Below, one piece after another: positions 52,807 to 60,530 of a DNA stretch of 64,000 nt (positions within the stretch are counted from its first letter, which is position 1; each line of letters opens with the position of its first letter). Source of the DNA: Eledone cirrhosa. Lineage: Eukaryota. The stretch covers positions 316,634,001 to 316,698,000 of the forward strand of contig OZ024742.1 in NCBI GenBank assembly GCA_964016885.1, given 5' to 3'. The translations under genes were made by a program, and so were the position numbers. The notes below the pieces were generated by a model. It was given only the letters and a program-made list of their open reading frames with translations, had not been told where the DNA came from and searched no databases.

Positions 52807-55282
52807 CTTTCGAACGTTCAACTATCTGGCAGATGGGTAAACGGTGCTGATGATAGCTAACAAGCTTGAAACTAGTACATCGTTCCTGTGTCAGTGTTGA
52901 ACAAAAAGGTGACGTGGTTGCCTTAACACCGTATGGCATAAATTCAGGCTGTTCAGTTTGTTTACAAACGAACAAAGCGACGTTAGCGCCGCTAAACTGA
53001 TACGTGCATATATGTATGTGTACCTGTATGCATATGTATATATATGTGTATATATATATATATATATATATATATATATATATGTGCATGCTACTGTACG
53101 TCTGTATACATATATGTATGTACGTATACATGCATACTTAAATTTAAGTAAGTGCCATACTAAGAGTGAGAAATGAAATTTCGTTTTCATTTTGTTTCAA
53201 TTTATATATATATATATATATATATATATATATATATATATATATATATATATATGTGTGTGTGTGTGTGTGTGTGTGTGTGTGAATGATATCGACCTTA
53301 ATGAGCCGAAACCATAGGGATTTCCAGAGGTTGACTGAGGAGATGGACTGTTGGCCTTTCCGTTGTTTTTTCAATTGTCCTTGTCCTGTGTGCACCAACT
53401 TTGAATTAATATATTAAAGATTTAGTCAAGCGGGCTTTTTTGAAACTAACATTTAATAAACATCACCTGCCTGTTTTCCTCTAATCCCCTTCTAACCTTC
53501 TCTACACATCAGTGCCCTTCTTCTTTGTCGGCACATTGGACTACAGTCCTTCTTTTTCTCTTTTATTTCTCTCTTTTCTATTTCTCTCTTTTCTATATTA
53601 ATTTCTCCCATATTTGTGAAATTTATCTAAAGGCATAACTTATCTCTATCTGATTTGTTATGTTCCTGTGTACAGTAGAATGAATGGTGTCGACGTTAAA
53701 AGCCGAAACCGTAACGATTTCCAGAGGTTGACTGAGTAGTTGTGACTGTTCGTCTTTCTGCTGTTTTTTCGATTGGTTTTGTCTTACGTGCACCTACTTT
53801 AAACACACACAATCACACATACACACACACACACATACACATACACATACACACACACACACACACACACACACATACATATATATATATATATTTATAT
53901 ATATATATATATATATATATATATATATATATATATATATATATATATATATCTTGCATAGGGTTTATTTTGACGATATTACTTTACCGCTCTAGAGAAA
54001 TGAGAAATTATACATATTCTTCTTCAATGGCCATATCCGATCCAGGTAGGCTGTTTTGGTGTCATCTTGCTAAACTTAATTGAAAGCGTGTGCGCGTACC
54101 AGAGAGAGAGAGAGAGAGAGAGCGAGAGAGAGAGAGAGAGAGAGAGAGAGAGAGAGAGAGAGAGAGAGAGAGAGAGAGAGAGAGAGAGAGAGAGAGAGAG
54201 AAGCAAAATGTGCTTATGAAGAAGACAGACATAAGCAAAAAAAATTGCTTTTACTCATTAGCATAACTGTACATTTGTTGGCGATGCATATTAATAAAAA
54301 ACCCTGTATTTATGAAATTGGTTTTCACAGAAAGCCCTGTCGTTTAACGAGTCCATTTTCACAGCAATTTCAAATATCCATGTACATTGATTTACAATGT
54401 ATTCACAAACACTCTCTTTCCGAACCTAATTTCATTTCACACATACACCGTAACTAAATAATGCAAATCCTGTTTCTGACGTTCTAGCGATTCTGACAAA
54501 GCACTTCTCTATGGATTCCACATATTGCTAATACTTATTGACATTAGATGAATGAAGAAATTATCAAATCTGATGGGATTTTAATTGACAATGCACTGAG
54601 AAATACTGAATAGCGTTTGATTAAATATGCGAGTCAAATAAATTATCATCTCATACAGATGCCAAATGAATTAAATTCAATATCACACAACTACAGAATG
54701 TGCATGCCTTTTATGTAAGCAGCAATCAGTTGACCAATTCACATTAGGGAAGAAAAGTTAAAAGCTTTGACCCATCACGCAAGCGTAAAATGTATTATAT
54801 TCACCCGGGTATAGAAACATTGAGCAGATACGGACCGCTGAGAATTTACTCAACTGAACGATGCACACGGATTAATATTTCACAGTTATGTCAACAATCT
54901 CCATCACCACAATTCAATTATTTGCATAAATCACATAGAAATCACGCCCTTATAACAAAGACATTATTTTTATGGATTAACATTTTTGATTTCCAAGGAA
55001 TAAACCTCATCGCATTGTCACTAAGAGATAAGTTTTATATAATAATCAGAATGCACCTACGGATGCACGTTTTATGATGCTCCGACAAACACAAACATTT
55101 AAAAACTTGCAAACACGAGTAAACAAGTTTGGGAGACTACAAGGGGAAAACATATTTAGATAACCACACTATTCATATACACCTTTAAGGCACAACCTTT
55201 TTTTTTTATTTTCTTTTGTTGGGTGATTCCAATTCTCCATTTCAGAAACCAGTTAATTTTACTATAATATAGAATAACGAAT

Positions 55283-55495
55283 GCGGTGGATTGGCAGTAT
55301 CGGGAGAAGGCCGGACGCCATGCTTTGCAGTATAGGGGGAGGCCCTTTATGATCTGAGTTCAAATCCCGCCGAGATTAACTTAGCCTTTCATCCTTACGG
55401 CTCGATAAAATAAAGTACCAGTCTCGCACCGGGGTCAATTCAATCGACTTCCCTTCCCCCAAATTTCTGGCCTTGTGCCTCTATAACAAACTGTA
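55283..55495 (+). mobile_element. Octopus-type tRNA-derived SINE
   Basis: GCGGTGGATTGGCAGTATC..CTGAGTTCAAATCCCGCCGAG..CCTTTCATCC..GGCCTTGTGCC. Confidence 0.85.
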
Positions 55496-56064
55496 ATATA
55501 GAACAGCGATACCTAACACATGTTCTCAGTTTTGTCTATTTTTTGCATAACACGCTTATCGACGATCGAATAGGCAGAACTCCAGTGGTCGAATATTTTA
55601 ACTTTTCACCGCTTTCACATATTTCCTTCATGCGAAACCGTTTTGATTTCACACAAAGATTGCAGCCCATAATAATTTTACTCGTCCTAAAATTATTTGT
55701 TTCATGTACTGCGCAAAAGACCATATAACCCCCACCACCACATATACACATTCGAACACACACATATATATAAATATGTAACATCAACAATCTAACATTC
55801 TTAACAATTAGAATATTTTTTATTCTGGACATCCACAGTTAGCTCCCTTACGATTGACCTTGCCCATGTGTATTCGTACGGTTGTTTTTCCTTTTCCGTA
55901 CAACTTCATTCAAACCGAGCTGAAGATGCGCATAAGGTGAAACGTTTATTCTCGCTATAGTGAACTAACAGTTGTGGAACTACTTCTCTCTCTGTCTCTC
56001 TCTCTCTCACTCTCTCTCTCTCTCTCTCTCTCTCTCTCTCTCTATATATATATATATATATATA

Positions 56065-57510: not shown

Positions 57511-57708
57511 TATATGTATATAGAGAGAGAAGTATTTCCCAAAACATATGAGGTTATACGTAAGCTGTTTGTTAATGTGATTCGACTTAGAGACCGAGGG
57601 TCTATGTGATCGGCTTAATTCCTTGAAGCATTGTTGTAGTCTACTGACTAGTGAATGAAAGTGGTAAATGATTACATTAATATATACACACACACATATA
57701 TATATATA

Positions 57709-59537
57709 TCGGACAGACTGGACGTCGCCTGGCGGACAGATTTACTGAGCACCTCCGGGATATTCGTCTCGGTGGTAGTTCCCCCATCGCCCGCCACTTT
57801 GGTGCCCCTGGACATTCCGCACGCCACCTCACAGTCTGTGGCCTACTCCAATGCCACGGAACACCCGCCAATCTCCTAAGAGTTGAACAACGAACCATCT
57901 TCATCTTACAGACCCACACTCCCCGCGGCCTGAACTACCCACCCTTATTCCTTTAGCTTTCGACCGCCCCACTCCACCCACACATATCCCCCACTAACAC
58001 CACTAACACACCCCTCCTTTTCACCGCCCACCCCACAACTAACAATACTAACACCTCCACTCCACCCCACATCCGACCACCCTTCCACAACTAACATACT
58101 AACATCCCTCCCTTCTTCTCCCCCCTCCTTATCACACGCACACACCCACCGGCACATATATACACGCGCTCACACTAAACACACACCCTACTACCACCAC
58201 TAACCCTCACCCCCACACATCCACCCCACCACCCCGCAACTAACATCACTAACACCCCCTGACCCCAAGCACACGAACACACACACCCACTTACACCACC
58301 CACCCTACACGCAACTAACATCACTAACACACCCCAACCCTACGCACACGTACACACACACCCTCTTACACCACCCACTCTACACACCCTACCCCCAATC
58401 ACACCCGCATTCAACCCTTTCTCCACCTCCTGTATACTAACACCCACTAACACCCACTTCACCCAACACACACACCAGTACACCACACTCCCTCCATCGA
58501 CCCCCACACCCTTCTCTCCCCGCTCCACCCACACCCTTTCTCAAACACTCACTCATCCCACTAACACCTCTACTAATACACACACACACCTCCTCCACAC
58601 TCCAACTTTCACACCTACGCATCCTCTCCCCCTTACCATTCTACCCTACTGCTGCTATGCCCTCTGACCACCTCCCCGCACACACCGACACACAACACAC
58701 ACTCACCATTTTACCCTACTGCTGCTATGCCCTCTGACCACAGACACACTACACTCCTCCTGCGTTGACCACTTCATGTTGCGCGCGCACCCCACATCTC
58801 CCCTCTTCCGACCAAAAATCTTCACGGATTACACGTATGTGAACCTTGATCCCGGAATCAACCACAATCAAGGATTTTACCAAGCATCGCACCACATCTT
58901 CTTACGGAATCACCTTTATGACTCACCCACACACACACACCCAAAACAAATTTTTTTCCCACACGCCACCTACACCCACAACACGCTTAAACACCACACA
59001 CACACGTGCGTACCACCACATATTTACACATTCAGCCTCCAGATTCCTCTCCCCCCACCCCTCTATCCACACTCGCACACACACTCCGACCTACACCCCA
59101 CTCCACACACACCTCTTCCTGAACATGCAACCCCATTCTTCCCCCAACCCTTGCTTTCACGCACACACACACACACACACACACACACGTACACCTACAC
59201 ACACACACCACCTTCAGCCCTCCCCGCTTGGACACCTCGTCTCCCTCTCCCCACTCCACCCGCCACCACCCCTACACGCCCCACACCCTTCCACCACCTG
59301 TTTTACTCCATTATAATTTTATTTTGATCATGCCTTTATTTTTAATTTCATTTGCACCGTTTCCTCTCACTCCCTTTTTGCGATATGTCCCCAACCCCTA
59401 CACACCCTTTGAACTCTCTTCCCACACACTTTTCACCTGAAGAAGGGCTTATGCCCGAAACGTCGTTCCCCACCACCACCCCACTCTCAAGAGCGTGAAA
59501 TTAATAAACATTTGTTGTACTGCCTCTCTGTTTTGTT
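57709..59537 (+). mobile_element. Non-coding C/A-rich element ending in HHR + AATAAA (PLE-type 3' end)
   Basis: CTGAAGA 59437-59443, A-GGGC(TTAT)GCCC, GAAA-CG-TC; AATAAA near 59503; (TA)n on both sides. Confidence 0.6.
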
Positions 59538-60530
59538 ACCGTTCAATTTTTCATTATATATATATATATATATATCCGGTTGACGTCTGAGAGAAAGGAG
59601 TACTCAATACAGAAGTAGAGTCTTAATATTCGTTTATATATGAGGACCCTGTGAAAAACAAGCGAAATTTCAATGTAAGAAGTCTCACCTTAATATAAAT
59701 GAATATATATATATATTTATATATATATATATATATATATATATATATATATATATATATATATATATATATATATATATATATATATATATATGTATGG
59801 ATATATATATATATGTATGTATATATATATATATATATGTATATATATATATATATATATATATATATATATATATATATGTATGTATATATATATATAT
59901 ACACTTCCTACCTCGAGATTTCCCTCTGCATTGTTGTGGCTTTCTTAACTACGTATTTTACACATTTCACAATGCTTCAAGCAAACTTTAACACCCTCAT
60001 ATATATATATATATATATACATATATATATATATATATATATATATATATATACATACATATATATATATATATATATATATATATATATATATATATAT
60101 ATATATATATATATATATATATATATATATATATATATATATATATATATATATATATATATACATACATACATATATATATATATATATATATATATAT
60201 ATATATATACATATATATATATATATATATATATATAAAAACAAATAACGAAACGAAATTAAATTTCGTTTCGTTTGTAACTCACTTTTGTATGACTGAC
60301 GCTTAAACAATTAAGTTAAAGATGTACATCCATATATGTATACTGAAATACTAGTATGTATATGAATACACACACGTATACATATGTAGATGTACCAAGT
60401 TTTTTCACTGGTCACTTTACTGTGAGTGGCCAGCTATTCTGTATGTAAACACACAGACAAACCGGTTTTTAGAGTCATACTGGTTTTTGAGGAAACACCT
60501 TTCCTCTATTCTCCAGAAAGCCAGACAAGG

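Follow-up and report, generated by a model that had tools for sequence, protein, structure and literature searches.

Why do two different tandem arrays stop at the same short sequence, each against a run of (TA)n? The question is raised by a 64,000-nucleotide stretch of the 3.0-Gb Eledone cirrhosa genome (G000:C3:316634001-316698000; this whole stretch is called the window, and positions are counted from its first letter), which contains two tandem families, "467" and "474". The original prediction, made from the letters of the window, was that copies arise by reverse transcription from a defined 3' end or signal. The sense strand is defined here as the strand bearing a hammerhead core. In both families the outer ends of the arrays are 3' ends of the hammerhead-sense strand, located at fixed sites. 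There is a second fixed end (site B) in addition to the first (site A), and the copies have a head-to-head form, both of which the original prediction missed. It also missed the link to Penelope-like elements (PLEs), which already accounts for the pattern (PMC11167929, PMC8557442). With a probability of roughly 0.78, 467 and 474 are non-coding hammerhead repeats inserted by the reverse transcriptase (RT) and GIY-YIG endonuclease of a PLE, that is, non-autonomous PLE derivatives of the 'non-LTR retrozyme' type (LTR, long terminal repeat).

Repeat families and genome searches

The 467 family lies at 60235-63351 in the window, where Tandem Repeats Finder (TRF) reports 6.7 copies and 100% matches; its orientation flips at 63351 and it then leaves the window. 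The 474 family lies at approximately 51563-52313 on one strand and at 52314-53205 on the opposite strand. Of 502 columns in an alignment of the two units 262 are identical, with the best match in unit 1-175 and the last approximately 90 nt; the units are thus homologous, and because of this homology they have the boundary ..TTTAT|CGT in common. G+C content of the 467 unit is 35%. There is no open reading frame (ORF) in the repeat unit, which is therefore non-autonomous.

With one 467 unit as query, a genome search produced 93 matches at 30 loci, representing 21 distinct places; when the terminal 474 unit was the query, there were 170 matches at 30 loci, with 72-95% identity. The 467 copies were mapped onto the unit and the sequence context of each end was then read. 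Scripts written for an automatic census of B ends and end pairs suffered from too much noise, owing to TA-rich probes and a palindromic hairpin; only single rows checked by eye were used. Internal junctions with variant starts that the script had placed in its 'terminal' class (two for 467 and 14 for 474) were likewise removed by eye.

Outer ends lie at two fixed sites

The terminal junctions in the window are as first described, ..GTTTTTAT|ATAT at 60235/60236 (minus strand) for 467 and ..CAATTTAT|ATAT at 53205 (plus strand) for 474. Both arrays do stop at a homologous ..TTTAT beside (TA)n, directly after a hairpin and a U-rich stretch. The contrasting internal junctions were also found, ..GTTTTTAT-CGTC eight times (six on the minus strand, 60698-63033, and two on the plus strand, 63459 and 63926) and ..CAATTTAT-CGTT twice (52714, plus strand; 51969, minus strand). 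Since internal units read straight across the site, the start of reverse transcription would be internal to a multimeric or circular template.

When the 3' junctions of genomic copies were tabulated, they proved to lie at two fixed sites rather than being scattered along the unit. All 33 outer ends of 467 copies, over 21 distinct places, are at site A (19) or site B (14), with none elsewhere. Site A is ..GTTTTTAT, at unit position 467, where all 19 ends that bear the tail (the stretch between B and A) are found, namely 18 genome copies and the window's own end at 60235. Site B is 69-74 nt upstream of A, with seven ends at ..CTTAATT (position 393; B1) and seven at ..TTGTTTA (positions 396-398; B2). 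For the 474 superfamily, 18 tail-bearing ends were read, all of them within the last approximately 10 nt of the unit: 10 are at ..TTAT, another six at TTCCAT|AT, which is either 5 nt earlier or reflects a TT-to-AT change, and the remaining two are elsewhere. Another 15-16 ends are at ..CATACTTAC or ..CTTACATTTA (..CTTAC and ..ACATTTA, respectively), and these B ends correspond to B1 and B2 of 467. Site B is in or beside a small stem-loop, CUUAA-N2-4-UUAAG.

A TA run adjoins 18 of the 19 A ends and all 14 B ends of 467 (32/33), the sole exception being the A end of locus L010. The background of TA-like sequence is 6% of 20-mers in the TA-rich window. None of the sequencing runs recorded as RNA contains the sequence. 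Contigs from four runs of unknown kind yielded no joints, starts or ends of RNA; their only breaks are of the DNA type and pass into (TA)n where sites A and B are. For run X1 the contigs change to (TA)n precisely at 60304 (B), 60702 (A) and 61636 (A).

Head-to-head arms pair site A with site B

Insertions consist of one or two arms inside (TA)n, two being the rule for most 467 copies, the left arm having its sense strand on minus and the right arm on plus. The 5' ends of the arms meet in the middle of the insertion at variable unit positions, with an inner overlap of 0-5 nt (once 11 nt). In total, 24 two-armed head-to-head insertions were found, in which tandem units stand next to an inverted, 5'-truncated copy. 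The parts of the two window insertions are:

51523..51562: (TA)n, left flank of the 474 insertion (from the sequence; TRF row 51523-51662)
51563..52313, minus strand: 474 left arm, approximately 1.6 units, 3' end at site B (..CATACTTAC|ATAT) at 51563
52314..53205, plus strand: 474 right arm, approximately 1.9 units, 3' end at site A (..CAATTTAT|ATAT) at 53205
53203..53255: (TA)n adjoining site A of the 474 insertion (TRF)
59703..60237: (TA)n adjoining site A of the 467 insertion (TRF)
60235..63351, minus strand: 467 left arm, 6.67 identical units, 3' end at site A (..GTTTTTAT) at 60235 (TRF)
63350..64000 and on to window-equivalent 68534, plus strand: 467 right arm, 11.1 units, starting at unit position 351

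The 474 left arm was placed from a BLAST map of locus L031, in which 337-1100 on the minus strand equals window 51558-52321, and the inner head-to-head junction is near 52307-52321. The 5' end of the 467 left arm is at unit position 153, inside the hammerhead.

In every one of the 24 two-armed insertions, both of those in the window included, one outer end is at A and the other at B. These are 12 of 12 for 467, counting the insertions in which both ends could be seen (L002, 3, 4, 10, 12, 15, 17, 22, 24, 25, 26 and the window) and 12 of 12 for 474 (L031, 32, 35, 36, 42, 43, 45, 56, 57, 58, 60 and the C4:29.897 Mb array). If ends picked sites independently at equal odds, the probability of this outcome would be approximately 6e-8. 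The pairing rule predicted a B end for the right arm of the window's 467 insertion, and the prediction held: in the next 10 kb, which were fetched, this arm ends approximately 4.5 kb past the window at B (..CTTAATTGTATA|TATATA), inside (TA)n.

Arms differ greatly in length, and short insertions of less than one unit exist, such as L010 with its 86-bp arm. In the window's 467 insertion there are no changes among the units of the left arm and eight in the right arm, each private to one unit; no variants are common to the two arms, the left one being invariant. A 467-type arm of 12 units elsewhere (G000:C2:364898389-364904045; L006-L009 and L011) shows an alternation of C and T at unit position 172 that is strict over 10 units, forming a two-unit higher-order repeat, and the same site also varies between units of the window array. 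Near-identical units and two-unit alternation fit read-through, rolling-circle copying and later local amplification alike.

A tail hairpin and a hammerhead motif in both units

The tail and the hammerhead motif were located in the window as follows:

60235..60308, minus strand: tail of the 467 terminal unit, unit 394-467, 74 nt (B1 at 60309, B2 at 60304)
60247..60275, minus strand: 467 hairpin, 13 bp, AACGAAACGAAAT-TTA-ATTTCGTTTCGTT, 14 nt before the end
53142..53205, plus strand: tail of the 474 terminal unit, from site B1 (after CTTAA, 53141) or B2 (after TTTA, 53146) to A
53170..53193, plus strand: 474 hairpin, 9 bp, followed by a 12-nt U-rich spacer
63582..63653, plus strand: 467 hammerhead motif, 8-bp helix I, CTGATGA at 63600, GAAAC-TAGT
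52833..52895, plus strand: 474 hammerhead motif, CTGATGA at 52847, GAAAC-TAGT with palindromic helix III, predicted cut after 52877

The tail spans 69-74 nt in the 467 family and 59-64 nt in the 474 family. In 467 the 84-nt tail, with its 13-bp stem, has a folding energy of -20.2 kcal/mol (z -3.63), and none of 200 shuffles folded equally well. The 474 hairpin, which is 12 nt before the end, is weaker (z -1.62), with 14 of 200 shuffles folding equally well. Among 19 distinct variants of the 467 tail a double compensatory change was found in one of 23 predicted pairs, and most other changes are G-U compatible. The core of the 474 superfamily tail, AGAGTGAGAAATGAAATTTCGTTTCATT, is nearly invariant among copies that are otherwise 75-95% identical.

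A motif search revealed a hammerhead core on one strand of both units, consisting of CTGATGA, helix II, GAAAC and then the palindrome ACTAGT. Judged by its sequence, this is a putative minimal hammerhead of the PLE type in both families, with a CUGAUGA..GAAAC core, helices I and II and the palindromic ACUAGU. In 467, helix II is GTTGT-AACA-ACAAC and the predicted cut is after unit position 164. At Rfam gathering thresholds the whole window gave no hits. In a permissive Rfam scan the top match was that of the 467 motif to Hammerhead_HH9 (38.1 bits, E 3.1e-8 on 467 nt), and the 474 motif matched HH9 with 18.5 bits (E 0.069). The HH9 alignment of 467 is without helix III and the motif is a dimer-type palindrome; the stable helix III and loop 1-loop 2 contacts of a canonical type I hammerhead were not found in it. 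A one-pair or palindromic helix III is described as the minimal variant of PLEs, distinct from the canonical ribozymes of retrozymes (PMC7229834; statements on this paper, on PMC8557442 and on 10.64898/2026.07.22.740005 refer throughout to extracts of these sources).

An octamer, ATGCAAAT, and a TATA-like box are conserved between 467 and 474, 50-100 nt upstream of the hammerhead (467 unit 34-41 and 76-83, for example at window 63500-63549; 474 unit 37-44 and 79-86). Together they may be an internal promoter.

Probable insertion by PLE machinery

The purified protein of Poseidon, a PLE of Anolis, cleaves AT-rich DNA on both strands and extends the two, and RT starts internally at two sites, the stretch between which is the tail; cleavage by the hammerhead is dispensable, and the substrate is likely to be a multi-copy RNA (Frangieh et al. 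2024; PMC11167929). PLEs form partial tandems, commonly with an adjacent inverted 5'-truncated copy, often have a "tail" of 30-40 bp at a single end and, in Naiads, show a strong (TA)n bias (Craig et al. 2021; PMC8557442). Animal retrozymes have been argued to descend from PLE pseudo-LTRs (Li, Clavereau & Pollet 2026, preprint; 10.64898/2026.07.22.740005). The anatomy of the 467 and 474 insertions matches the published PLE signature, with the tail between two start sites at one end only (24/24) and (TA)n as the target (32/33 ends of 467); therefore the units are most likely non-autonomous PLE derivatives. The genome is also rich in PLEs, with 10,597 first-look GIY-YIG candidates, of which 150 were scored, every one above the cut-off.

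A PLE protein would bind the tail module on an RNA that is either multi-unit or circular. On the model of the Anolis PLE in vitro (PMC11167929), the endonuclease of this protein would cut both strands of AT-rich (TA)n DNA, and each 3'-OH would prime cDNA on the RNA, starting internally at one of the two sites that flank the tail. The start site would be set by RNA recognition rather than by target homology. The two antisense cDNAs would then be joined via microhomology of 0-5 nt (once 11 nt) and filled in. RNA cleaved by the hammerhead was considered as the template and rejected, as the 5' ends of arms do not pile up at the cut site and many cut sites lie within the arms.

That A and B are paired so strictly points to a single protein-RNA complex acting at both DNA ends, with one tail border for each. 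A dimeric PLE complex on the tail of one RNA, giving each end of the break a different border, is a tentative and rather doubtful explanation for the joint use of A and B. If true, natural non-autonomous copies would be a read-out of the second half of Penelope-type integration.

Several points weigh against insertion by PLE machinery. An autonomous partner with this tail was not seen, as none of 30 GIY-YIG loci (of 10,597 candidates) has a 3' end like that of 467 or 474; neither an RT and GIY-YIG ORF in the element nor a partner sharing its 3' module was found. A PLE copy in the window itself (described below) shares only approximately 13-20 nt of terminus with 467/474, is without the tail hairpin (z +0.77) and belongs to a family of single-arm insertions (29/30 loci, with a single small inverted piece in L083). 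For the PLE in vitro the start site was not seen to differ between strands (PMC11167929), and strict A+B pairing is therefore not predicted by published work. The tail, at 59-74 nt, compares with 30-40 bp reported for PLEs (PMC8557442). Helix II of the 474 hammerhead motif contains a U-U mismatch at its base, and the HH9 scores of both units are under the Rfam gathering score of 52. Finally, the 474 pairs were classified by eye, with locus L049 ambiguous.

Alternative explanations

The mechanism originally suggested was that a unit-length RNA polymerase III (Pol III) transcript ends at a T run, is reverse transcribed in the manner of a short interspersed nuclear element (SINE) and anneals to (TA)n by microhomology. 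It is true that the 467 unit terminates in T5 and AT, that the octamer and TATA-like box are kept upstream of the hammerhead in both families and that the terminal TAT continues the phase of the (AT)n flank. The T-run counts on which the suggestion was built also stand: from the hammerhead cut to the hairpin the sense strand has no run of T4 or longer in either family, and has runs of A4 or longer, four in 467 (five in the whole unit) and one in 474. However, the depletion of T4 is not significant against dinucleotide shuffles (P = 0.07-0.13 for 467, P = 0.81 for 474), and T4/T5 runs are present inside every multimer (467 positions 60, 92 and 461; 474 positions 3, 65, 463 and 469). As each unit has three or four of these runs, templates for the 6.7- and 11.1-unit arms must cross them, and so would a template circle needing two hammerheads. 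The 474 junction is 12-18 nt beyond the first T4, and the second fixed end, site B, is not beside a T run. Neither family fits the expectation for a Pol III SINE, a T4-free transcript whose T-run terminator is the 3' junction. AT microhomology fares no better as a determinant, since the overlap is only 0-3 nt and the 474 unit has a long (TA)n of its own yet no clear end there; target microhomology therefore does not select the site. Head-to-head pairing, moreover, is not a feature of SINEs. While a Pol III origin is very unlikely, the wider proposal of reverse transcription from a defined signal on hammerhead-sense RNA fits the data, all outer ends being sense 3' ends at fixed sites.

Ordinary satellite growth in place by unequal crossing-over or slippage, with the (TA)n vicinity reflecting microsatellite-rich surroundings only, would suit arrays that are long and homogeneous, one of them with a satellite-like two-unit higher-order repeat, and local amplification after insertion may explain part of the copy number within arms. 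As the origin of the arrays it is very unlikely, because the two end points and the head-to-head form recur at over 40 dispersed places, spread across many contigs, insertions below one unit occur (the 86-bp arm of L010) and ends adjoin TA runs far above the 6% background. Movement of the units as DNA by a rolling-circle (Helitron-type) transposon is the least probable origin and can almost be dismissed. Helitron-type elements carry a hairpin close to their 3' end, integrate at A/T sites and may form tandem arrays, and the arrays described here share with them a hairpin 12-14 nt before one end, insertion into TA and tandem organization. Helitron termini, however, are defined as 5'-TC and CTRR-3', with insertion between A and T, whereas those of 467 and 474 read ..TTTAT and ..CTTAATT/..GTTTA. 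In addition, head-to-head arms, variable inner junctions and 5' truncation are what is expected of cDNA, and hammerhead motifs with a one-sided tail are features of PLEs.

Other elements in and near the window

The PLE copy in the window (57711-59554, plus strand) is a 5'-truncated member of an abundant family. From 57693 onwards there is a GIY-YIG reading frame; the 3' region of the copy is long and C/A-rich, a hammerhead-like CTGAAGA..GAAACGTC precedes its end by approximately 95 nt, and the copy is flanked by (TA)n to the left and right. All 31 relatives examined end ..TTCAATTTTTCAT|(TA)n, and 2.3 kb past the 467 array there is a further copy, in which RT motifs are present. This PLE was set aside as a partner of the arrays for its absent tail hairpin and its single arms.

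A short element at 37270-37660 (minus strand), between (TA)n flanks, has two hammerhead-like motifs. One of these, CTGATGAGG..CGAAAC-ATATAT with a long helix II, is approximately 90 nt before the end ..GTTTCGTCAC|TATATA, and in its sequence the element looks like another 3' end of the PLE type. Directly after the 467 right arm, between two (TA)n tracts, there is a third tandem family with a period of approximately 635-650 bp and 3.5 units (L061 4620-6930; window-equivalent 68620-70930). It ends ..TTTAT beside TA, and no clear hammerhead was seen in it.

Two diverged copies of approximately 125 bp (..AGCCGAAACC..TTCCAGAGGTTGACTGAG..) at 53285-53410 and 53680-53805 (plus strand) adjoin (TG)n and (CA)n/(TA)n tracts. 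At 43662-46500 (plus strand) there are remnants of a reverse transcriptase of the long interspersed nuclear element (LINE) type and, at 43884-44250, a tandem duplication of 183 bp, with no apparent relation to the arrays.

Comparison with known systems

In twin priming of LINE-1 (L1), both ends of the break prime cDNA on the RNA, giving an inverted 5' segment and a direct 3' segment joined at microhomology. The 467 and 474 insertions resemble this in that both break ends would prime and the inverted segment is joined via microhomology. However, the second site of L1 is variable and internal, whereas here it is fixed beside the first, and the arms can be many units long.

Resemblance to PLEs (PMC11167929, PMC8557442) extends to AT-rich or (TA)n targets, the apparent use of both DNA strands as primers, and tandem with inverted 5'-truncated copies. 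It also includes a pair of discrete start sites on the RNA, located in or close to a stem-loop, with the stretch between them at just one of the insertion's ends, and a hammerhead motif upstream of the start sites. Insertion into (TA)n is shared with the Naiad and Neptune clades (PMC8557442) and makes target-site duplications unreadable; Naiads differ in being without canonical hammerheads (PMC8557442). Differences from PLEs are the lack of an ORF in the unit and the longer tail. The hammerhead is approximately 300 nt upstream of site A rather than approximately 90 nt, and A+B pairing is strict, whereas no difference between strands was seen in vitro.

Similarities to the non-LTR retrozymes of animals (Cervera & de la Pena 2020; PMC7229834) are also seen, as those are dispersed, non-coding tandem units of 150-450 bp with low G+C and a type I hammerhead in each unit, and a PLE origin has been proposed for them (10.64898/2026.07.22.740005). 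The hammerhead of 467/474 departs from that of canonical retrozymes: it belongs to the minimal PLE type, its helix III is palindromic and loop-loop contacts are absent. The extracts of both retrozyme descriptions (PMC7229834, 10.64898/2026.07.22.740005) do not describe end points or a head-to-head form.

The insertions thus link hammerhead tandem repeats ("retrozymes") to PLE machinery by the anatomy of insertion, beyond sequence similarity, and for annotation they explain hammerhead arrays in (TA)n as inverted blocks. As a large set of natural insertions, in repeats of an invertebrate style and unrelated to the lizard element, they show at single-base resolution the two-site PLE footprint previously seen in one in vitro study of that element. 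To the PLE picture they add that a hairpin module is conserved between the sites, that pairing of the sites seems to be obligatory and that, on this evidence, the start site is not chosen by the target microsatellite. A footprint of this kind is already described for PLEs; the strictness with which A and B are paired goes beyond published work.

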